Part shown: piece by piece, positions 4,653-51,611 of the stretch | How positions within the stretch are numbered: position 1 is the stretch's first letter | Layout of the letters: the number at the start of each line of letters is the position of its first letter | Virus genome (UHGV): UHGV-1550212 | Length of the DNA: 64,000 bases | DNA from: a virus | Reading direction: 5' to 3' (one strand) | Notes under the pieces: model-generated | Database searches by the model: none | What the model was told of the DNA's origin: nothing | What the model saw: the letters and a program-made list of their open reading frames with translations, nothing else | Position numbers and translations under genes: made by a program

Positions 4653-6644
4653 ATGGCTGAAGTCAAGAATCAAGTGTTTAATCCAGTAGCACAATTCAAA
4701 TCTGCTGAAGAAAAAGAAGCTGCGAAAGTTATATGGTGCAGTGAATCAGTCGCAATGGCATATGATGCAGTTGACCAAGGCTTGCCACTTAGAGCAAATC
4801 CGTGGTTCTTTGGCAATATTGCACTGCGTAAGCCCGGATTGCTATACAGATACACTGACATAGAATTGCGTGAATGGCTTAGATGCAAGTATGACATATT
4901 ATATTTTGCTGACACATGGTGTCAGATTTTAACTCCAGATGGCACAAGAAAGCATTTTAATTTGAGACCATATCAACGCAAAATGCTGCGTGCATATCAA
5001 CGACAAAAGTATACGATAGTTCTTACTGGGCGACAAGTAGGCAAAACGGTCGTTACATCAGTATTTCTCGCTTGGGCAGTCATTTTCAATCGTGAGCTTA
5101 ACATAGCAGTACTTGGCGACCGCTTGGCAACATCAAGTGAAAACCTGAACAAAACAAAAGACATCATAAACAATCTGCCGTTCTTTATGAAGCCTGGTGT
5201 GTTTGTTTGGAATGGCGGAATGGTCGCATTTGACAATGGTTGCAAAATTATCACAGGTACTGCTCAAAAGTCATCACTTGTCGGTAAGACAATTCACATC
5301 TTATATCTTGATGAGCTCGCAATTCCACCTGCTCAGCAATCAAAGACTCTTGTAGATTATGCATTGCCAACAATTGCGTCATTGCCAACTGGCAAAGTTA
5401 TCGTAACATCTACGCCATCTGGTGATAATGTGTTCAAGACTTTGTGGCTTGGTGCAATTAACAAAACAAATGGCTTCTTTCCAATTCAAGTAAACTGGTG
5501 GGATATTCCTGGCCGTGATGAAAAGTGGAAAGCTGAGCAAATCGCAATTCTTGGTGAAGATGCTTTCAATGAGCAATACAACTGCGTGTTCTTGTCAGGT
5601 GCAACGTCAATTTTCAATTCAAGAGCAATTGATGATATTGCAAGACGACAGCAAAAGTATGAATTTGTTGCTGATGAGCGTCTTGAATCACTACTCAGAT
5701 TCTTCATTGCTGATTCAGATGTCGGCACTGAACCCGAGCCGCACTCATTTATGACTTGGCGTGCAGATATTGACCCAGCAACACTCAAAAATGAAACATG
5801 TATCATCAATATTGACATTGCTGAAGGTTTATCTGGCGACTTTTCTGTCATACATGTGCATCGTATAGTTGACATTACAAAAGATGTTGAACTTGAACTT
5901 GATGCAAGCAATCTGTATGATATGTTTGACGATGACAAAAAATCATTGTTTGCAAAAGCAGTTGAAATGCAACGTCAAATGTCAGCAACACAAGCTCAAG
6001 ATGATGACGATGATGACGATGACGACTGGTTTGGCGCAGACGATGATGTCGCTCAAGGCGTTGATGCATATCAAGATTATGCGAATGCTGCAGTAGAAGA
6101 GATTGGCTTATGGCGTTCAAATGTGACATCAATCAAAGTCATGGCTCTGTATTTGCAGTTCTTAATGACGTATGTGTTTGATGCAAACAAAACAAAGATT
6201 ATCTATGAACGCAACAAATATGGTGGAGAGTTTCGTTCATATTGTTTGTCTGAACGTGCACGCAATATTGCAATTGATGAAGAGAGCTTCGTAAGCTTCC
6301 AACGAACTCTTGGTTCAGAACAACTTGCACCAGGCTGTTCAATTACGCCTGGCACCAAACCAGTGTACGTAAGACAGCTCAAAGACCTTATTGAAACTGG
6401 CAAGATTCTTGAAAACAATGCAGATACGCAAAGAGAGCTTACATATTTTGGCGGTGTCAAAGGCAAGAATGGTCACGTGTCATATCAGGCGTCACCTGGC
6501 TTCCATGATGACATTGCAATGACTCTTGTATCTCTTGCAGCATTTATGGACACTCGATGCAATGACTGGCTTGAACTGCTTGATGTGTTCTACAATGGCA
6601 GCAGTCAAACAAGTTCTGATGATGACGATGATGACTGGATTTGA
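4653..6644 (+). CDS. terL: Terminase large subunit (T4 gp17-like ATPase-nuclease)
   Basis: Walker A LTGRQVGKTVVTSVFLAWAV, Walker B HILYLDELA, C-terminal nuclease-domain GFHDDIAMTLVSLAAF, all closely resembling T4 gp17 as I recall it. Start moved to ATG 4653 (MAEVKNQ), divergent from the gene starting at 4585. Contains in-frame poly-Asp tracts at 6000-6026 and 6618-6635. Confidence 0.9.
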   Translation: MAEVKNQVFNPVAQFKSAEEKEAAKVIWCSESVAMAYDAVDQGLPLRANPWFFGNIALRKPGLLYRYTDIELREWLRCKYDILYFADTWCQILTPDGTRKHFNLRPYQRKMLRAYQRQKYTIVLTGRQVGKTVVTSVFLAWAVIFNRELNIAVLGDRLATSSENLNKTKDIINNLPFFMKPGVFVWNGGMVAFDNGCKIITGTAQKSSLVGKTIHILYLDELAIPPAQQSKTLVDYALPTIASLPTGKVIVTSTPSGDNVFKTLWLGAINKTNGFFPIQVNWWDIPGRDEKWKAEQIAILGEDAFNEQYNCVFLSGATSIFNSRAIDDIARRQQKYEFVADERLESLLRFFIADSDVGTEPEPHSFMTWRADIDPATLKNETCIINIDIAEGLSGDFSVIHVHRIVDITKDVELELDASNLYDMFDDDKKSLFAKAVEMQRQMSATQAQDDDDDDDDDWFGADDDVAQGVDAYQDYANAAVEEIGLWRSNVTSIKVMALYLQFLMTYVFDANKTKIIYERNKYGGEFRSYCLSERARNIAIDEESFVSFQRTLGSEQLAPGCSITPGTKPVYVRQLKDLIETGKILENNADTQRELTYFGGVKGKNGHVSYQASPGFHDDIAMTLVSLAAFMDTRCNDWLELLDVFYNGSSQTSSDDDDDDWI

Positions 6645-6712: not shown

Positions 6713-7216
6713 TCATCGTTTTCGATGGAAGACTTTGAATTTGTATCGTAACGTTCTGTCATTATCTGTGCATGTGTATAGTGCAGACTCAGATTTTTTA
6801 GTCCACATTCGCCAATTGACTGCAGGAAATCGAACGTCGCCTTCAGCATAATTGTCAATCATCGTCAAGTACATTCTGTCTGCATAAATCATTGCTTCTT
6901 CAAACAACTTAGAACCGCCGATGATAAACATGTTAGACGCAAATGCAGACTTGCAATATGCTATTGCATTGGCTAGCGTGCTAAATACGAAATAGTCGCT
7001 TGTTGGCTGCAATGTAGAGCTTATAACAATGTTAATTCTGTCGGGCAAGGGCTTGCAATTCATCGACTCAAAAGTCTTACGACCCATGATGACAATGTGA
7101 TTCTTTGTGAGTTTCTTGAAGTGCTGCAAGTCATGTGGAATATGCCAGGGCAAATCACCATTGCGACCTATGACATTGTTATTTGATACTGCTGCTATGA
7201 TATTGATGTATTGCAT
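6713..7216 (-). CDS. frd: Dihydrofolate reductase
   Basis: N-terminal IAAVSNNNVIGRNGDLPWHIPHDLQHFKKLTKNHIVIMGRKTFES is the canonical DHFR signature; 167 aa. Confidence 0.9.
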   Translation of the reverse strand: MQYINIIAAVSNNNVIGRNGDLPWHIPHDLQHFKKLTKNHIVIMGRKTFESMNCKPLPDRINIVISSTLQPTSDYFVFSTLANAIAYCKSAFASNMFIIGGSKLFEEAMIYADRMYLTMIDNYAEGDVRFPAVNWRMWTKKSESALYTCTDNDRTLRYKFKVFHRKR

Positions 7217-25951: not shown

Positions 25952-26920
25952 TTAATCAAGCCAATGCAACATATTCTCATCATCAAAACGAGATTCAAGC
26001 TCTGCTGTCGTAATGAATGCAAGTTTGTTCAGCATATACTGCTGCAATTCACGTTTGCGAATTGATTCAAATCTGACAAATGTTTCAGGCACTTCAAGTT
26101 CACCATCAGCATCATATGTTGCAACAGACGTGTCAACATTGATGTTATGAATCTTTTCACATGACACTCTGTACTTTGTCAAGTCAAAGCCTGGCATGCC
26201 ATCATTACGAGGCAGCAAACTCCACATAGCAAAGTTTTCTACAGCTTCAGCAACAAATGCAAGAGCTTCATGCATGTCAACACTATAGTCTTCTATAAGA
26301 TTTGCATACAATGTAGCTACAATGTTTTGGTGTGTTGCAAGGTCAAGCTTATTACTAATTGCATGCTCAAAAATGTCTTTGAAGTTCTCATACATAGTAA
26401 AGTTCTTCAAGACAAGTCGCTGTAATGCTGTGCGATCTTCAAGAGCTGCAAATGCTGCGTCATCATGCATTGCAGAAGCTGCTGCTTGCTGAGCATTCAG
26501 TACAACTGACACATCATGAATGACAAATTTTGAGTCAATCAATACTGACACTGCAATAAATGGTGCAACAGACTTTGAGTCTTTTTGAGCAAAGTCAATC
26601 TTAATGTGAAATGAATTGCCTTGTCGTGATTGCACTGAATGATAAATGTCGTAGTCGTTGACATACAGCTTAAAGTGCTGCTTGATTGCATCATTGACTG
26701 CATTGATGCCCGCATCATAAATGTTGCCAATCACTTCAAGTGCACGAGTGTTAAGCGTATGTGCAAGAAATGCTACGTTTTGATAGTTGACGAGTTTGTG
26801 AGACAAGTCAGTCGTGCTGTTAAGTTGTCTCATCAAATCATGCAGTGCATCGTATGACAATTTGATGTCATCTAATGTGTTGCACTCATGTATTGCGTTA
26901 ATTTGCTGTGCCAGAGTCAT
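25952..26920 (-). CDS. Hypothetical protein (322 aa)
   Basis: ORF; no motif recognised. Confidence 0.5.
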   Translation of the reverse strand: MTLAQQINAIHECNTLDDIKLSYDALHDLMRQLNSTTDLSHKLVNYQNVAFLAHTLNTRALEVIGNIYDAGINAVNDAIKQHFKLYVNDYDIYHSVQSRQGNSFHIKIDFAQKDSKSVAPFIAVSVLIDSKFVIHDVSVVLNAQQAAASAMHDDAAFAALEDRTALQRLVLKNFTMYENFKDIFEHAISNKLDLATHQNIVATLYANLIEDYSVDMHEALAFVAEAVENFAMWSLLPRNDGMPGFDLTKYRVSCEKIHNINVDTSVATYDADGELEVPETFVRFESIRKRELQQYMLNKLAFITTAELESRFDDENMLHWLD

Positions 26921-28701: not shown

Positions 28702-28735
28702 GCAAATATATTTTTGTTTGTATATGTACATAAAA

Positions 28736-28765
28736 GAGCAAGTTCTCAATGTGGAGAACTTGCTC
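28736..28765 (-). terminator. Hairpin (12-bp stem gagcaagttctc / gagaacttgctc, loop aatgtg)
   Basis: Perfect inverted repeat downstream of the tRNA/non-coding region on the minus strand. Confidence 0.4.
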
Positions 28766-29159
28766 AGCTGACCTGTTGCCAGGTGAAAGCGTGGTGCAGC
28801 ACCTTGTGCTGCAATGGCTATGCTGCCATCGCCATAACGGGCTGAGCATTGCCCAGCATCATTACACGACCAGCTGCATTAAGCGTACGCTTTGCTTTGT
28901 TGAAAAATTTGCCAGTTATCTGGTATCTGCACATCTATTCAAGCGACCTACTATGCAATCAAATGCCTGTCGAGCCCAATGTTTGAGCAGTTGTTTGTCA
29001 GATGCTCAGCTGACTGCAGTCTTTCTGAGTGTATCAAGTTCAGCGATTCTGCATCTTTGCTAAATGGCAATAGTTCAGGTGGACTCGCCGAGAATCGAAC
29101 TCGGGTCTTACATAGCGCATCCTTGACTTGGTCCTGTAAACAGGGTTGTCAACATGCAT
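28766..29159 (-). ncRNA. Candidate structured non-coding RNA region downstream of the tRNA cluster, including a tRNA-like 3' half at about 29075-29105
   Basis: About 390 nt with no credible ORF, more GC-rich than surroundings, internal repeats (gctcagctgac twice) and a T-arm/acceptor-like CCGAGTTCGATTCTCGGCGAGTCCACC for which I could not find a pairing 5' acceptor strand. Confidence 0.25.
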
Positions 29160-29230
29160 TGCAATACGACAGGACTCGAACCTGCGACCTCGGATTGGAC
29201 GTCCGCGCTCTTACCGCTGAGCTACGTATT
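29160..29230 (-). tRNA. tRNA-Gly(UCC)-like, atypical (G at position 33, G1:G72 mismatch); possibly a pseudo-tRNA
   Basis: Minus strand GAATACG-TA-GCTCAGCGGTAAGAGC-GCGGA-CGTCCAA-TCCGA-GGTC-GCAGG-TTCGAGT-CCTGT-CGTATTG; canonical D and T arms, anticodon TCC. Confidence 0.5.
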
Positions 29231-29321
29231 CTTATCAATTGACTGCACTGCAATGCAATCAATCGTGCCAATGATATTTGACGCATAATTGCAGTTATGC
29301 GTAACAATTCAAATGTCATTG

Positions 29322-29394
29322 AGCCAACTGCAGGAGTCGAACCTGTAACCTGCTGATTACAAATCAGCTGCTCTGCCAATTGAGCTAAGTTGGC
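29322..29394 (-). tRNA. tRNA-Thr(UGU)
   Basis: GCCAACT-TA-GCTC-AATTGGCA-GAGC-A-GCTGA-TTTGTAA-TCAGC-AGGTT-ACAGG-TTCGACT-CCTGC-AGTTGGC-T; acceptor stem 7/7 paired. Confidence 0.8.
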
Positions 29395-29476
29395 ATAAAG
29401 TCGTTGGGCCATTGCAACCCAAACCTATCATCTTTGTCTAACCAAAGATGCAAGTGTTCTCTTACACCACGACTTG

Positions 29477-29548
29477 TAGCCGAACTTGGAGTCGAACCAA
29501 GCTTTCGAGAATGAAAATCTCGCGTCCTAACCGATAGACGAAACGGCC
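29477..29548 (-). tRNA. tRNA-Glu(UUC)
   Basis: Anticodon arm CGAGA-TTTTCAT-TCTCG, T arm CTTGG-TTCGACT-CCAAG, D loop with GG; acceptor stem has two mismatches at its base, so ends are +/- 2 nt. Confidence 0.65.
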
Positions 29549-29731
29549 AAGAGCAGTTCAAGTCTGCAGCATTGAACTGCGGAAACAATGCCTGTACGGG
29601 CAGCAAATTGTGCAGATACAGCGACATTGCAAAATCACACCGAACCAAGTTTGTGGCTCTTCTGTCTCATAAAAACAAGTAATCATTACACTTGGCACCA
29701 ATGATTCTGATGTAAAAATCGGTGTGTTATG

Positions 29732-29816
29732 CGGAGAGTAAGGGATTCGAACCCCTGGTACGTTGCCGTACAGTGGTTTTCAAGACCACCGCCATCGACC
29801 GCTCGGCCAACTCTCC
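29732..29816 (-). tRNA. tRNA-Ser(UGA), long variable arm
   Basis: GGAGAGT ... GTGGT-CTTGAAA-ACCAC, variable arm TGTACGGCAACGTACCA, T arm AGGGG-TTCGAAT-CCCTT, acceptor 3' ACTCTCC perfectly paired. Confidence 0.85.
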
Positions 29817-30010
29817 ATAAAACATTGCATAAGCATTCTTATCTCTTGATGAGACCAAGTAGCTAATTTGGCAAGTTTGTTATATCTATCGTGACTGTTG
29901 CAGTTTGTTTGTCACTCAATACACAAAACTTTCGAACATTCATTGACAGCACTGCAATATCGCTTTTTAAGCTTAGCCATCAATGTATTTATGCAATGTA
30001 TAACAATTCG

Positions 30011-30092
30011 TAGCCAAACCGGGACTTGAACCCAGACTCCTAATGGAACAACATTTTGAGTGTTGCGTGTCTACCAATTCCACCATTTGGCC
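30011..30092 (-). tRNA. tRNA-Leu(CAA), long variable arm
   Basis: Anticodon arm CAACA-CTCAAAA-TGTTG, variable arm about 13 nt, T arm CTGGG-TTCAAGT-CCCGG, acceptor GGCCAAA/TTTGGCT. Confidence 0.8.
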
Positions 30093-30182
30093 ATTTACAA
30101 ATGCAATCTATTTCACAACTGTTTGCATTTGCATTGTTTAACACTAAAAATATGATTCATCTAATCAAAAACCAGAGAATTG

Positions 30183-30256
30183 TAGGGTAGACAGGACTCA
30201 AACCTGCGACCACGTGGTCCCAAACCACGCATTCTAATCAACTGAACTACTACCCT
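30183..30256 (-). tRNA. tRNA-Pro(UGG)
   Basis: AGGGTAG-TA-GTTC-AGTTGATTA-GAAT-G-CGTGG-TTTGGGA-CCACG-TGGTC-GCAGG-TTTGAGT-CCTGT-CTACCCT-A. Confidence 0.85.
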
Positions 30257-30262
30257 AAGTAG

Positions 30263-30334
30263 TTGAACCGTCTGGACTCGAACCAGAAATGGCTGAACCA
30301 AAATCAGCTGTGTTACCGATTACACCACGATTCA
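30263..30334 (-). tRNA. tRNA-Gln(UUG)
   Basis: TGAATCG-TG-GTGT-AATCGGTA-ACAC-A-GCTGA-TTTTGGT-TCAGC-CATT-TCTGG-TTCGAGT-CCAGA-CGGTTCA-A. Confidence 0.85.
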
Positions 30335-30398
30335 ATCAAATGCAAATCTTTGTAAGGCGTTTGCAATCCTGTAATTTGTTTATGTATTTTATAGTGAT

Positions 30399-30427
30399 AT
30401 AATACTACAAACATTTATGATTTGCAC
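30399..30427 (-). promoter_or_regulatory. Promoter-like motif upstream of the tRNA operon (sense TGCAAATCATAAATGTTTGTAGTATTAT)
   Basis: Same TGCAAA-N16-TAnnAT architecture as the protein-gene motifs, about 65 nt upstream of the tRNA-Gln 5' end. Confidence 0.45.
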
Positions 30428-30858: not shown

Positions 30859-31356
30859 TCATTCGATGTTACCAGATAATATCCGAATGGCATCCAATGC
30901 ATTTTCTCGTATTAAGCCAAACTTACCTATAACTTGAACAAAATGTTTGTCATTTTCAAATGTTGAGTCGTCAAGAATGACATATTGTTTGATGTTATGT
31001 TTATCAACAAGCGCAGGCACTGCAGCAAATCTGTCATAAAAGCCCTCAGCATAAATTGATGGCAACAAATAGCCCGGCATATTGCGCTTAAGCCACATTG
31101 TCTTGCAGTCATCAAGAATAGCCCAACTACTTATCAAGCAAATTGCGCCAACATCTGACATCTGACAAATGTATCTCAACCAGCCAACACAACGTTCGTC
31201 AAATAATTGACCAAACTCATCTCTCGACTGCACATCCATGTTTGCACGATGTTTTGACATGTGCAACATATTGAGATTATCTTGGCTATTCAAAACGCCA
31301 TCAATATCCAAGAAAATTACTTTGTCAGGCCAAATCACTTTGCTTGCTGCGTTCAT
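30859..31356 (-). CDS. HAD-superfamily hydrolase (possible 5'-nucleotidase-type phosphatase)
   Basis: HAD motif I VIFLDIDGVLNS and later ILDDS; 165 aa. Confidence 0.45.
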   Translation of the reverse strand: MNAASKVIWPDKVIFLDIDGVLNSQDNLNMLHMSKHRANMDVQSRDEFGQLFDERCVGWLRYICQMSDVGAICLISSWAILDDCKTMWLKRNMPGYLLPSIYAEGFYDRFAAVPALVDKHNIKQYVILDDSTFENDKHFVQVIGKFGLIRENALDAIRILSGNIE

Positions 31357-41766: not shown

Positions 41767-44700
41767 TCAATTACATGCTGAATGTCCGCAGTTGGTGCAT
41801 CGAACACAGCCATCAAACTTGACCATGTCACCGCCGCATTCAGGACACTTTGCATACATCTTTGAGCCATCTTGAATATGCAGTTTCAATGCGCGCCCAA
41901 TTGCTTTGCAGAATGTTCCGACAGATGCAAAGCTTTTTGCAGTTTGGTCGACAATTTCGCCAAGGTCAATGCCATTGCGAAGCATCGTTGAGTACAGTCG
42001 AGTAATTGTTTGCTGCTCGTCTGAACCAAGACGTTCTGAGATATTATCATAGTGCTGCAAGAATGACAAATTATCACCAAGCTTGTAGTGCTTCTTATCA
42101 GTCTTTGTGATTGTCGTTTGTTCAATGCCTTGCAACTTGTCGAATTCATCTTTGTCAAGTTCAAATGCAAAGATTTCATAAGGTCGACCGTCATCACAGC
42201 CTACAAGAATACACCACTTGCGCTTATACACTGACACGCAATACACTGCAGCAGGCAATACTGGTTTTCGTTTTGAGCGATGACCAGATTGCAAGATGTG
42301 CGACTTGTCTTTTGACTGCTTGTCATCTTTTACGAGAACACCTGCACGTGAGCCATCTCGATAAATTGTGCAGCCTTTGCAGCCAGATTTCCATGCAGTC
42401 AGATAAATTTCACGAACAAGCTCTTTTGTTGCAGAGTTTGGAATGTTGACCGTTACAGAAATTGACGAGTCAATGTATTTTTGCAATGCACCTTGCAATT
42501 TCACCTTGCCAATCCAGTCAACATCTTCAGTAGTTGCCTTGTAGTATGGTGATTGAATAAGCAATTCATCAATGACTGCTTGCGGAGCATTTGACAACCA
42601 AGCTTTGATGCGAGACATTTCTGCTTCTGACCATTCAATGCCAGTATCTTTGACAAGAGTAAATTTGCCATCGCCAAGCTGCACTCGTTTACAAATCCAC
42701 TGCATCAACGGATAATGAACTACAGCGTATTCAATGAACTTGTCACCAGTAGTCTCATCAATGAAGTTGATGTCGGCCTCATTATCAACTGCAGTTGGCT
42801 TACGACGACGTTTATGTAGTGGCATAAATACGGGCTCAATACCAGACGTTGTCTGAGTCATCAAAGCTGTAGTGCCTGTTGGTGCAATTGTGGTCGTGTT
42901 AATGTTTCGACGGCCAAATTGCTGATAAGTTTTGATGTGCTCATCATCAATCAGTTCAGATAGCATACGCTGGATGAACTTTGATTGCACATCTGTGTCA
43001 TAGTCAAATATTGCAAATGAGCCACGAATCTTTGCCAAGTCAATTGACGCTTCATAAGTCGCCTTTACAAGCCATTGTTGCATAGTGACTGCGAAGTCAA
43101 TTGACTCCTGCGAGCCATAACGCAAGCCAAGCATCGCCATTGCATCGCCAAGCGCAAGGAAGCCCATGCCATATCGACGAGTGTTTGTCAGTTTATCATA
43201 AACTTTGTGCCACAAGTCAAGTTCAGTCTTTTTGATGTCAAAGTCTTCTTTATCTGACCGAACCTTTGCAATGATTCGTTGCACTGCTTCAATTTCAAGC
43301 TGCACAAGGTCATCCATGATGACTGCACAGTCATATGTATCTTTGTAGAATGTCTCAAAGTCAAATGATGCATCAGCAGTCCAAGGATTAAGCACATATG
43401 CAGTCAAATTGCGATGCGACAAAATGCAGCTTGCATATGCAGCGAGAGGCTGTTCACCGCAATTTAGTGTATTGACTACTTGCTTGTCATTGACAGCAAT
43501 AAAGAAATTGTGGAAGTCTTCTACTGTGCCATTGTACACATCTGCTTTGTTCATGTGACGTGTTGCAACGACTTTGACAATTGCATCACCAGTAGTGTCA
43601 ATGTCTGCATATTTGCTGCAGTCACCTAACGCTGCGCAAGCATCACAGCAATATGCTTGTTCACGATTGTCATAAGAAACTTCGAATTCTTTACCACAGC
43701 ACTCGCATTGTTTGATAACTGTGTTTCGTTCTGTTTTTACAAGCTCGTCAGTCTTCAATGCAATTGATAGCTTATCTGCGCTTGGCATATCAATTGCCCA
43801 CAATGAGTCATTTGTTGCAAGGTCAATTGCATTCTTGAAATCGCCATTAGCAAGCCTGAACTCATGATTTGCTGTGCAATTGATGACATGGCCGTCATCA
43901 AGCACAATTTGAATGATTTGCGCATTATGTGCAGTCAATCTGGGTCGACGCATTGTGCGCACAACGAGCTTGCCATTAGAGTCAAGACAATATACTGGAA
44001 TGTCTTCACCACTATCAGCAAGCTCTTTGAATGTCTTCAAACCTGAGCCATCAGCAACAAGTACTTTTGTGTCACCTGTGAAGCATGGATTTGTTGAGCG
44101 CTCTTCATACATTTTGCCATATGCTTTCGAGTTCGACTCTTCCATGATACGGTCCCAGAAGAACACGCCGGGTTCTGCAGATGCCCATACGTTATCAACA
44201 ATTTTGTCAAACAATGCTTTTGCATCTGATGTCTTATGCAGCTCTTGGCCATTAGAGCCACGCCAAACATGCTCAAACTGTTGTTCTGCAAGCACTGCAC
44301 GCATAAATGCATCAGTAAGCTTGATTGAAATGTTTGCGCCTGTGATTTTCGTCAAGTCCTTTTTTGCATCAATGAACTTATCTGCGTCAGGATGCTCAAT
44401 TGACAATGACAACATCAATGCGCCACGCCTGCCATTTTGTGCAACTTCTTTTGTTGATGTTGAAAAACGTTCCATAAATGACACTACACCAGAAGTTGTA
44501 ATAGCACTGTTATGCACTTCTACGTCTTCTGGACGAATGTGCGACAAATCATGACCAACGCCACCACGACGCTTCATCAACTGAACTTGCTCTTCATCTG
44601 TTTTGAAGATGCCGCCATATGAATCTGCGTCATTGCCAATTACATAGCAATTTGACATTGACGTGTAACCGCCAAGACCAATACCAGCCATTGGAGAACC

Positions 44701-44988
44701 ACCAAGCACAAACCGCTTAAAAGGCTCAAGTAAATATGCAAGTCGTTCTTTTGACAATACACGTTTGCCTGTCTGTTCTTCAAATTGTGATTCGATGCGG
44801 TCAAATTCATTGACCCAGCGCTCATGCATATCAGACAATGAGTGTTCATACAAATTGTCTTTGTCATGATGCAAGTATTTTGACATGCATATGTCAGCAG
44901 CCATTGAATCGCCTGTAAATTCATGCGTCAGTGTAGTGTGCACTTCAGCATATTCAGGCGACCCAATTTGAATGGGATGTTTTGTCAT
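41767..44988 (-). CDS. nrdJ: Ribonucleotide reductase, class II-like (NrdJ-type) catalytic chain, interrupted by an intein
   Basis: RRGALMLSLSIEHPDADKFIDAK signature; catalytic motif split as ...ERSTNP | intein | CGEQPLAAY, giving NPCGEQPL after excision; C-terminal zinc ribbon CPECGG ... CVRCTNCGHSAC. Start at MTKHPIQ (ATG 44988). Confidence 0.75.
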   Translation of the reverse strand: MTKHPIQIGSPEYAEVHTTLTHEFTGDSMAADICMSKYLHHDKDNLYEHSLSDMHERWVNEFDRIESQFEEQTGKRVLSKERLAYLLEPFKRFVLGGSPMAGIGLGGYTSMSNCYVIGNDADSYGGIFKTDEEQVQLMKRRGGVGHDLSHIRPEDVEVHNSAITTSGVVSFMERFSTSTKEVAQNGRRGALMLSLSIEHPDADKFIDAKKDLTKITGANISIKLTDAFMRAVLAEQQFEHVWRGSNGQELHKTSDAKALFDKIVDNVWASAEPGVFFWDRIMEESNSKAYGKMYEERSTNPCFTGDTKVLVADGSGLKTFKELADSGEDIPVYCLDSNGKLVVRTMRRPRLTAHNAQIIQIVLDDGHVINCTANHEFRLANGDFKNAIDLATNDSLWAIDMPSADKLSIALKTDELVKTERNTVIKQCECCGKEFEVSYDNREQAYCCDACAALGDCSKYADIDTTGDAIVKVVATRHMNKADVYNGTVEDFHNFFIAVNDKQVVNTLNCGEQPLAAYASCILSHRNLTAYVLNPWTADASFDFETFYKDTYDCAVIMDDLVQLEIEAVQRIIAKVRSDKEDFDIKKTELDLWHKVYDKLTNTRRYGMGFLALGDAMAMLGLRYGSQESIDFAVTMQQWLVKATYEASIDLAKIRGSFAIFDYDTDVQSKFIQRMLSELIDDEHIKTYQQFGRRNINTTTIAPTGTTALMTQTTSGIEPVFMPLHKRRRKPTAVDNEADINFIDETTGDKFIEYAVVHYPLMQWICKRVQLGDGKFTLVKDTGIEWSEAEMSRIKAWLSNAPQAVIDELLIQSPYYKATTEDVDWIGKVKLQGALQKYIDSSISVTVNIPNSATKELVREIYLTAWKSGCKGCTIYRDGSRAGVLVKDDKQSKDKSHILQSGHRSKRKPVLPAAVYCVSVYKRKWCILVGCDDGRPYEIFAFELDKDEFDKLQGIEQTTITKTDKKHYKLGDNLSFLQHYDNISERLGSDEQQTITRLYSTMLRNGIDLGEIVDQTAKSFASVGTFCKAIGRALKLHIQDGSKMYAKCPECGGDMVKFDGCVRCTNCGHSACN
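43462..44085 (-). mobile_element. Intein (208 aa) inserted at the catalytic Cys of the reductase
   Basis: Starts CFTGDTKVLV (block A), block B TANHEF, block F DVYNGTVEDFHNFFIAV, ends ...VVNTLN followed by Cys +1; middle has a small Cys cluster (CECCGK ... CCDAC ... C), no LAGLIDADG motif seen. Confidence 0.65.
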
Positions 44989-45029
44989 TGTAACAGTGCA
45001 TTTAAGTGTTTTAACTGTTTTATGTATAA

Positions 45030-45057
45030 ATTGTACAACAATGGGCAAAATTTTGCA
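45030..45057 (-). promoter_or_regulatory. Promoter-like motif (sense TGATGCAAAATTTTGCCCATTGTTGTACAAT)
   Basis: About 40 nt upstream of the reductase ATG; its TGCAAA element lies inside the left arm of the hairpin at 45055-45108. Confidence 0.45.
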
Positions 45058-51155: not shown

Positions 51156-51611
51156 TTAAAATTTGCCATCTGCTACTTGAAAGCATCGATAGCCAAGCTC
51201 TCGCCATTTAGCAACCATAGAATCACGGTCTTCAAGTATAAACGCGATTTGTTTCAGCTCATCTTCAGACAAGGCTTCTACAAGCAATTCAGGCTTGACA
51301 AGTGTATCATGACGTTTATCACCATCTTTTCGCATAAGAATTTGCGGATTGACGATTCTGCCATCTGTATGCTGTGCAAGCCAAATTTCTGTCATTTGTC
51401 TACAGCTTTCACGACGACCTGTGCAGAATATGATTCTGTAGCCAACTTGCTGCAAATCGCAAAGCAAGTCAAGCACAGTCATAATGGGCATGTCTTCATG
51501 ACAGTGTGCATAAAACGCATCCCAATCTTTGTTTGATTGTTGAAGATATTTTAGACGGTCGCCAACTTTTGAAATTGTTCCGTCAATGTCGCATATAATG
51601 ATATTTGCCAT
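51156..51611 (-). CDS. HAD-family polynucleotide 3'-phosphatase-like protein (resembles the phosphatase domain of T4 polynucleotide kinase)
   Basis: IIICDIDGTIS (DxDGT), IIFCTGRRE, and C-terminal ILEDRDSMVAKWRELGYRCFQVADGKF, which matches my recollection of the T4 Pnk tail [27 protein letters not shown]. Confidence 0.6.
   Translation of the reverse strand: MANIIICDIDGTISKVGDRLKYLQQSNKDWDAFYAHCHEDMPIMTVLDLLCDLQQVGYRIIFCTGRRESCRQMTEIWLAQHTDGRIVNPQILMRKDGDKRHDTLVKPELLVEALSEDELKQIAFILEDRDSMVAKWRELGYRCFQVADGKF

Follow-up and report, generated by a model that had tools for sequence, protein, structure and literature searches.

The locus described here lies on the minus strand of UHGV virus genome UHGV-1550212, of which we analysed a stretch of 64,000 nucleotides (nt), called the window below; coordinates given without a contig name are positions in it. 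It carries seven transfer RNA (tRNA) genes and, directly downstream of them, a predicted two-piece (circularly permuted) transfer-messenger RNA (tmRNA; approximately 29150-28730). A first-pass annotation, made from the letters alone, had proposed the seven minus-strand tRNA genes with their positions and anticodons. ARAGORN calls all seven with the same anticodons (29161-30334), and Rfam RF00005 agrees on every one of them, at 44.1-65.9 bits against a gathering threshold of 29 (E-values of 4e-6 to 4e-12 in 64 kb). Since two independent methods call the same seven genes, the positions and anticodons of that annotation are correct. The tmRNA had been missed; it appears genuine on the comparative evidence given below, and is the most substantial feature of the locus. 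From promoter to terminator, the locus is probably one phage transcription unit with tRNAs and tmRNA, and this unit extends past position 29160 (Table 1).

Table 1. Positions of the features of the tRNA-tmRNA locus and of its upstream neighbour in the window.
Feature	Position	Strand	Evidence and remarks
HAD phosphatase, RNA-repair "Swiss army knife" type	30859..31356	-	Pfam PF18143 HAD_SAK_2, 54.4 bits; upstream neighbour
Promoter, TGCAAA-N16-TATTAT	30399..30426	-	Recurrent phage class; 65 nt upstream of tRNA-Gln
Leader block, TACAGGATTGCAAACGCCTTACAAAGATTTGC	30335..30366	-	Directly upstream of tRNA-Gln
tRNA-Gln (UUG)	30262..30334	-	ARAGORN; Rfam 59.1 bits; CAA is 67% of Gln codons
tRNA-Pro (UGG)	30182..30256	-	ARAGORN; Rfam 62.5 bits; CCA is 45% of Pro codons, the top one
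tRNA-Leu (CAA)	30010..30092	-	ARAGORN; Rfam 54.2 bits; TTG is 32% of Leu codons
tRNA-Ser (UGA), canonical 7/5 allele	29731..29816	-	ARAGORN; Rfam 56.5 bits; TCA is 45% of Ser codons
tRNA-Glu (UUC)	29476..29548	-	ARAGORN; Rfam 46.4 bits; GAA is 71% of Glu codons
tRNA-Thr (UGU)	29321..29394	-	ARAGORN; Rfam 65.9 bits; ACA is 52% of Thr codons
Aberrant Gly(UCC)-like tRNA	29161..29231	-	ARAGORN; Rfam 44.1 bits, lowest of the seven, above the gathering threshold of 29
Predicted tmRNA, acceptor piece	29078..29150	-	ARAGORN, RF04321, covariation; 5' end approximate
Acceptor piece, 5' hairpin	29144-29133	-	
Acceptor piece, P2 3' strands		-	
Acceptor piece, T arm	29104-29100 with 29092-29088	-	
Acceptor piece, acceptor 3' strand CGAGUCC	29087-29081	-	
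Acceptor piece, A73	29080	-	
Acceptor piece, CC	29079-29078	-	
Predicted tmRNA, intervening segment	28978..29077	-	Expected to be excised from the precursor; hairpin GAGCA...UGCUC just upstream of the coding piece
Predicted tmRNA, coding piece	28730..28977	-	Acceptor 5' strand GGGCUCG at 28977-28971; P2 5' strands; 3' hairpins
Predicted tag open reading frame	28895-28818	-	AKRTLNAAGRVMMLGNAQPVMAMAA, then stop
Intrinsic terminator	28765-28736	-	12-bp hairpin, then T tract (TTTTAT); closes the unit

Relatives of the locus (L001, L006, L007, L008, L009, L137, L143 and L144) were recovered through the neighbouring genes. L008 is a distant relative, and in L004 the neighbouring protein is only 61% identical to that of the window.

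Six of the tRNAs are canonical, with tRNA-Pro beginning 5 nt past tRNA-Gln. Codon usage was counted over the 57 minus-strand open reading frames (ORFs) of the window, and each of the six reads the most used codon of its family in the phage (32-71% of the family), or a joint top codon for Leu, where TTG is essentially tied with CTT. With their cognate codons being the most used ones, these genes fit the usual codon-supply role of phage tRNAs, and they likely top up or replace the host tRNA supply.

The tmRNA is called by ARAGORN as a permuted gene on the minus strand (28727-29169); a permuted tmRNA is also called in L007, L008, L137 and L143. The Rfam model RF04321 matches positions 28818-29138 of the window at 30.8 bits (E-value of 9e-4 in 3 kb), L007 at 30.6, L008 at 35.1 and L009 at 27.2 bits, all under its gathering threshold of 47. 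Lineage-specific tmRNA models barely register on this tmRNA (17.6 bits for the beta and 14.3 bits for the alpha model). The acceptor helix, GGGCUCG with CGAGUCC-A-CC, has its 3' strand encoded upstream of its 5' strand, which is the arrangement of a permuted tmRNA, and the coding piece contains a D-loop-like ACAGGCAUUUGA. The G3:U70 pair is invariant in 6 of 6 sequences, as is A73, and three neighbouring acceptor pairs are changed on both sides; L001 encodes ACA where the window has ACC.

The structure is recovered by RNAalifold, including the acceptor helix, the T arm, a long P2 helix between the two pieces, the 5' hairpin, the hairpin of the intervening segment and the terminator, with 26 pairs changed on both sides. 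Within the tRNA-like domain, 89.8% of the cells are paired, against 32-43% in controls with slid partners, and 15 pairs are double-changed, against 0-2 in the slid controls; none of 500 shuffles reaches the observed values. Both the T arm and the inter-piece P2 are present, with double changes in 8 of the 15 pairs of P2. The T stem is CCGAG/CUCGG in the window (type A) and CCGCC/GGCGG in a second allele (type B). In the intervening segment, the hairpin keeps its pairing through two double changes in L001 (GGACA...UGUCC).

The tag was read from a GCA after an A-rich stretch as the resume codon, a choice inferred from the context. In L008 the corresponding tag is AKRSLNNAMGRVMTLGAPAPVMAMAA followed by a stop, and in relation to the window 10 codons differ only synonymously and 6 non-synonymously. 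The last seven residues, PVMAMAA, are unchanged between the two despite four synonymous changes and a different stop codon. The frame has the hydrophobic end with Ala-Ala before the stop, and its mostly synonymous divergence points to selection on the peptide. Outside the relatives, exact-pattern scans of IMG/VR with the acceptor piece and the tag region returned nothing or just one related contig, and blastn of the tmRNA against the phage collection gave only short tRNA-like matches and no detectable similarity.

The seventh tRNA gene departs from the others. It had been described with G instead of U at position 33 and a G:G pair at 1:72, and both are there: the Rfam alignment flags 1:72 as non-standard and the anticodon loop is CGUCCAA. 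The RNA can be written as GAAUACG-UA-GCUC-AGCGGUAA-GAGC-G-CGGA-CGUCCAA-UCCG-AGGUC-GCAGG-UUCGAGU-CCUGU-CGUAUUG-C, and it has defects beyond those previously listed, namely C73, A2:U71, A3:U70 and a shortened anticodon arm. Of the seven acceptor positions, six form Watson-Crick pairs and the other is G1•G72. The D arm has the G18 and G19 of a regular tRNA in the loop AGCGGUAA, and the T arm, GCAGG-UUCGAGU-CCUGU, has a loop of the regular UUCRANY form. The anticodon stem has only 4 bp (CGGA/UCCG) and closes a loop with G33, in place of the 5-bp stem and U33 of a regular tRNA. The distance between the D and T stems is 21 nt, against 22 in the T4 tRNA-Gly and 23 in scaffold-matched tRNAs (real tRNAs with the same D-stem, anticodon-stem and variable-loop scaffold), so the anticodon arm is one layer short. 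The anticodon stem of tRNAs is consistently of 5 bp, with 6-bp exceptions (PMC7609411). The Rfam alignment of the gene skips part of the anticodon arm (local end), the minimum-energy fold lacks the anticodon stem, and the folding z-score is -0.56, compared with values from -2.1 to -3.0 in the six canonical genes.

The acceptor end was also compared with the determinants of glycylation. Bacterial glycyl-tRNA synthetase (GlyRS), in Escherichia coli and Thermus thermophilus, recognizes U73, G1:C72, C2:G71, G3:C70, C35 and C36. The Gly-like gene has C35 and C36 in its UCC anticodon; at the acceptor end it has C73, G1•G72, A2:U71 and A3:U70 instead, under E. coli and T. thermophilus rules that may not be those of the host. 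All four acceptor features (U73, G1:C72, C2:G71, G3:C70) are found in the T4 tRNA-Gly. The possibility of a histidine-type tRNA with G-1:C73 was considered and discarded, given that U8, A14 and G10 fix the numbering and make the first G position 1. A loop-free pattern was searched in IMG/VR and metagenomes for a normal version, with U33 and a 5-bp stem, and none was among the matches listed, which comprised the same gene, unrelated real tRNAs (Asn, Thr, Ile, Met, Arg) and chance matches in GC-rich coding DNA.

In relatives whose spacers share 92-99% identity, divergent alleles take the place of whole tRNA bodies (Pro, Ser and Gln) and keep the anticodon loop (window 30256-30182, 29816-29731 and 30334-30262, against L001 4488-4561 and 4942-5026 and L007 127-278). 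The tRNA-Gln of L007 is identical to the others at 47 of 73 positions, and three alleles of tRNA-Pro occur among close relatives. For tRNA-Ser, an allele with the same anticodon loop in L001 (4942-5026) and L137 shares 46-47 of 87 positions with the canonical one. It has an 8-bp acceptor stem, a D stem of 6-7 bp with a 4-nt loop and a short T stem, and is Sec-like for Rfam; with this 8/4 fold, it matches the (8/4) tRNA-Ser of phage tRNA clusters (PMC5389517). Ahead of tRNA-Thr, L006 has a 28-nt insertion (about 1027-1054) that duplicates the initial 9 nt of the Thr gene; a hairpin comes after it.

The tmRNA takes part in this exchange. Its type-B acceptor, GGGGGUG/CACCUCC, is found in L001, L006, L009, L144 and the distant L008, and the two halves of the tRNA-like domain switch between types A and B together. 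Sequence variants of the 100-nt intervening segment occur independently of these types. From this joint switch we infer a co-adaptation of the two pieces with recombination between them. Between the Gly-like gene and the tmRNA, L006 has an ORF of 279 amino acids (L006 1305-2144) that contains a DUF559 / restriction-endonuclease-like domain and probably encodes a homing endonuclease of the free-standing kind. The 3' end of the same ORF lies upstream of the tmRNA in L009 and L144 (in L144 possibly a remnant), and the three contigs all have the type-B tmRNA allele.

A phage promoter-like motif had also been noted ahead of the array. A promoter is indeed present; the motif CACTATAAAATA, tested as the likely candidate for the one meant, is not recurrent (8 matches in the window against 7.6 expected) and is disrupted in L001. 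The recurrent class is instead TGCAA-N16-18-TAYWAT, with 17 matches in the window against 2.2 expected (about 8-fold), a number reached by none of 100 shuffles. Sixteen of the 17 copies are on the minus, coding strand, and the class is common to intergenic regions. L004 has TGCAAA...TATAAT at the matching place, and 31 of the 32 positions of the leader block are identical in L004; the core of this block is unique in the window. No further copy of the promoter motif was found inside the array, and a simple sigma-70 consensus scan gave no minus-strand match upstream of tRNA-Gln.

Taken together, we consider it fairly probable that the locus works as one translation-supporting unit, composed of six decoding tRNAs, a two-piece tmRNA and a non-decoding Gly-like RNA. 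The sigma-70-like phage promoter (30426-30399) would drive a polycistronic precursor ending at the terminator (28765-28736), and the single RNAs would be released from it by RNase P and 3'-end enzymes of the host. Their 3' ends would be finished by a CCA-adding enzyme, since no gene of the unit encodes the full CCA. The acceptor and coding pieces of the tmRNA would then pair into an alanine-accepting tRNA-like domain, and the tmRNA would free ribosomes that have stalled and append a tag with PVMAMAA at its end, presumably using SmpB, alanyl-tRNA synthetase and EF-Tu of the host. The Gly-like RNA would keep its D and T arms for an L-shape, and hence for processing, having lost the features for glycylation and decoding; it might mark for processing where the tRNA array ends and the tmRNA precursor begins, or act as a ligand or decoy for a tRNA-binding factor.

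Several observations weigh against this joint reading. For the tmRNA, these are the RF04321 scores below the gathering threshold, a tag that is unusually long and basic, and a type-B T loop of 6 nt (UUCGAU; L001 about 5640-5665, L008 about 100-125), against 7 nt (UUCGAUU) in type A of the window. No SmpB domain was found in the window ORFs scanned, and a scan of bacterial genomes for the 5' end of the tmRNA gave two chance matches, both without a tmRNA, and no bacterial relative. For the Gly-like gene, the perfect D and T arms and a score above gathering leave room for weak decoding, its low diversity could be the result of a recent cassette sweep rather than of purifying selection, and its sole substitution, U4 to C in L006, breaks an acceptor pair. 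The 840-nt ORF that separates it from the tmRNA in L006 and L009 weakens the boundary role. An obligatory 5' processing signal for the tmRNA was also considered, and is weakened by this intervening ORF and by L008, where the Gly-like gene is absent and tRNA-Thr directly precedes the tmRNA.

That the Gly-like gene is a dead pseudogene, with its low diversity explained by the recent spread of a cassette in a recombining phage population, has perhaps a modest chance of being right. Its multiple independent defects agree with this idea, as do the acceptor-stem mismatch added by the lone substitution in L006, the lack of the gene in L008 and an array that demonstrably exchanges whole cassettes between near-identical genomes. 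On the other side stands its conservation. Over five close genomes, 1 of the 71 columns of the gene is variable, against 44 of 545 (8.1%) in the flanking spacers (Fisher P = 0.024) and 6 of 89 in the spacer directly upstream, a level similar to that of the Leu, Glu and Thr tRNAs together (4 of 230). The sequence is identical in 5 of 6 independent assemblies from different samples, and the D arm, the T arm and 6 of the 7 acceptor pairs are still perfect. Being as conserved as genuine tRNAs argues against a freely decaying pseudogene, and the low variability suggests that the gene may be retained for a shape-dependent role.

It is unlikely that the gene is a working, inefficient tRNA-Gly for the rare codons GGA and GGG, in a host perhaps short of that isoacceptor. 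Such a decoder would be in line with C35, C36 and a loop context (C32...A37 A38) as in the T4 tRNA-Gly, with the intact D and T arms and the 44.1 bits of the tRNA model, with a conservation equal to that of real tRNAs, and with T4 itself carrying a Gly-UCC in a very similar tRNA set. Its codons are nevertheless the rarest ones for Gly (GGA 6% and GGG 3%, or 69 of 759), with at most 5 per gene and concentrated in no gene, so that the frequent cognate codon expected for codon compensation is missing. G33, an arm one layer short, an anticodon stem unformed in the minimum-energy fold and an acceptor end without the T4 tRNA-Gly features that match the published GlyRS identity set also speak against decoding, as does the absence of the gene in L008. 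The first-pass annotation had left the choice between a pseudo-tRNA and an unusual functional tRNA. The gene is atypical as it described, and low codon demand, the truncated anticodon arm, G33 and the acceptor end make decoding unlikely, which narrows that choice.

To return to the translation-supporting unit, its Gly-like member is a true aberration. We take it to be, most likely, an RNA with the shape of a tRNA that is processed with the other tRNAs and does not decode, putatively derived from a tRNA-Gly(UCC) of T4's kind.

In a different joint explanation, which we find rather improbable, the array is where the phage contends with host immunity directed at tRNAs. The Gly-like RNA would act as a tRNA mimic that is under constraint and cannot be cleaved; with G33 beside the usual cleavage site and a short arm, it could tie up or block an anticodon nuclease or some other defence factor that binds tRNAs. 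The swaps of Gln, Pro and Ser bodies and of tmRNA halves among phages 92-99% identical would come from diversifying selection by defence factors, and the cassette swaps and two RNA-repair-type phosphatase genes would likewise belong to counter-defence. Finally, that the tmRNA is a false positive, such as a tRNA fragment with a chance ORF, is very improbable and already largely refuted: ARAGORN has a known tendency to over-call tmRNAs, the Rfam scores stay under the gathering threshold and two bacterial loci match the 5' tRNA-like-domain pattern without a tmRNA, but two programs agree across at least five assemblies, fifteen covarying pairs survive slid and shuffled controls with G3:U70 and A73 invariant, the tag ORF diverges mostly by synonymous changes and conserves its ...AMAA stop context, and both halves of the tRNA-like domain change allele jointly.

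The genome around the locus is that of a large phage, which encodes a gp23-like capsid protein, a T4-type terminase, a split topoisomerase II, a ribonucleotide reductase (RNR), a NAD ligase and a dihydrofolate reductase. The closest cultured phages are Chryseobacterium MA9V-1/2, Sphingomonas PAU and Tenacibaculum jumbo phages, with only 30-40% amino acid identity in capsid and terminase. The two topoisomerase genes are 7.3 kb apart in the window and 1-2.6 kb apart in MA9V-1 and PAU, where the interval between them contains neither tRNA nor tmRNA. From this difference, the tRNA array is an insertion specific to the lineage of the window's phage.

The HAD_SAK_2 gene upstream of the array also precedes it in L004; we treat it as context of the array, with only a putative membership in the transcription unit. 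A second RNA-repair-type HAD phosphatase (51156-51611, minus strand; HAD_PNKP, 106 bits) lies 20 kb from the array, and no RNA ligase or kinase partner for the two was identified in the window.

The promoter class, TGCAA-N16-18-TA(C/T)(A/T)AT, often seen as ...GTTGTACAAT, has further sites at, for example, 59722-59695, 58555-58528, 57395-57368, 50164-50137, 45057-45030 and 35078-35051, and three motifs stand in tandem at 28109-27964. The sigma-70-like geometry of the class is a hint that the host uses standard -35/-10 promoters and is not of the Bacteroidota type. An enrichment of TGCA/TTGCA as a special signal was discarded, since TGCA is not among the tetranucleotide extremes and the motif is explained by the -35 element of the promoter and a preference for GCA/TGC codons. 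Two long spacers of the array, 29817-30009 and 29549-29730 (minus strand), fold better than shuffled sequences (z = -1.96 and -2.31, respectively); they contain hairpins whose stems are kept and whose loops vary among relatives, which may be processing sites or small RNAs.

Elsewhere in the window, GATC is nearly absent (2 counts over both strands against 369 expected, with a single site at 26434) and CTAG is very rare (4 against 120 expected, with sites at 6973 and 10836), a scarcity that looks like avoidance of a restriction system. The RNR large subunit (41767-45048, minus strand) appears to be interrupted by an intein; its barrel domain is stretched over residues 132-896, and an Intein_splicing match has 30.8 bits, under its cut-off.

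All components of the locus belong to known kinds. Both tRNA arrays and two-piece tmRNAs have already been documented in phages, so that the locus leaves existing knowledge unchanged and its value is in the details. The cultured phages of this jumbo-phage clade have no array at this locus, and the window adds to the clade a well-supported two-piece tmRNA. The paired allele switch across a conserved 100-nt segment may be a natural demonstration of co-adaptation between tmRNA pieces. As far as the alignments indicate, interchangeable tRNA bodies (including canonical and 8/4 Ser) beside a conserved crippled tRNA are the pattern that would be expected if selection other than for codon supply acts.

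In comparison with T4, whose set is Gln-ttg, Leu-taa, Gly-tcc, Pro-tgg, Ser-tga, Thr-tgt, Ile(cat) and Arg-tct, the overlap of anticodons that the first-pass annotation had pointed out holds, with 5 of 7 identical (Gln-UUG, Pro-UGG, Ser-UGA, Thr-UGU and Gly-UCC). Both are compact same-strand arrays starting with Gln-UUG. A free-standing endonuclease gene lies in the cluster (segB in T4, the DUF559 ORF in L006 and L009), and stable non-tRNA RNAs are at the 3' end, rnaC/rnaD in T4 and the tmRNA in the window. The order differs, being Gln-Leu-Gly-Pro-Ser-Thr-Ile, segB, Arg, rnaD, rnaC in T4. Unlike T4, the window has Leu CAA and not UAA, includes Glu, lacks Ile and Arg, has spacers of 80-190 nt instead of 1-10 nt and contains a defective Gly member, in a phage only distantly T4-like.

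Phage tRNAs that escape host defence (van den Berg et al. 2023, PMC10264068; Azam et al. 2024, PMC11555353) likewise differ from host-like tRNAs in or near the anticodon loop. They stay functional decoders, which the Gly-like gene probably is not. The window has two RNA-repair-type HAD phosphatases as well. The eLife paper on such tRNAs mentions in its main text neither position 33 nor Gly. The Ser allele of L001 and L137 resembles the (8/4) tRNA-Ser and allo-tRNAs (Mukai et al. 2017, PMC5389517) in its 8-bp acceptor, long D stem with a 4-nt loop, long variable arm and Ser anticodon; this likeness holds only for the relatives, the Ser gene of the window being canonical 7/5.

With the bacterial permuted tmRNAs (RF04321; PMC11915505), the predicted tmRNA shares the order of acceptor piece, intervening segment and coding piece, G3:U70, A73, the T arm, the inter-piece P2 and a tag ending in Ala-Ala. 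It differs from them in scoring, together with its relatives, 27-35 bits against a gathering threshold of 47, and it is assignable to none of the three bacterial lineages (alpha-proteobacterial, beta-proteobacterial and cyanobacterial). For phages, Buchholz et al. 2022 (PMC9004378) reported 53 unique tmRNA structures that ARAGORN assigns to the two-piece type, most of them from aquatic phages, and 79 phage tmRNAs are in the 2025 tmRNA database (PMC11915505). Unlike the phage tmRNAs of PMC9004378, the one in the window has no Rfam glutamine riboswitch match, is fused to the end of a tRNA operon and has a longer, basic tag. As in the tmRNAs of the OM43 phage Melnitz and of pelagimyophages (PMC9004378), a permuted ssrA lies in a large genome of T4-like myovirus type with tRNA genes alongside.

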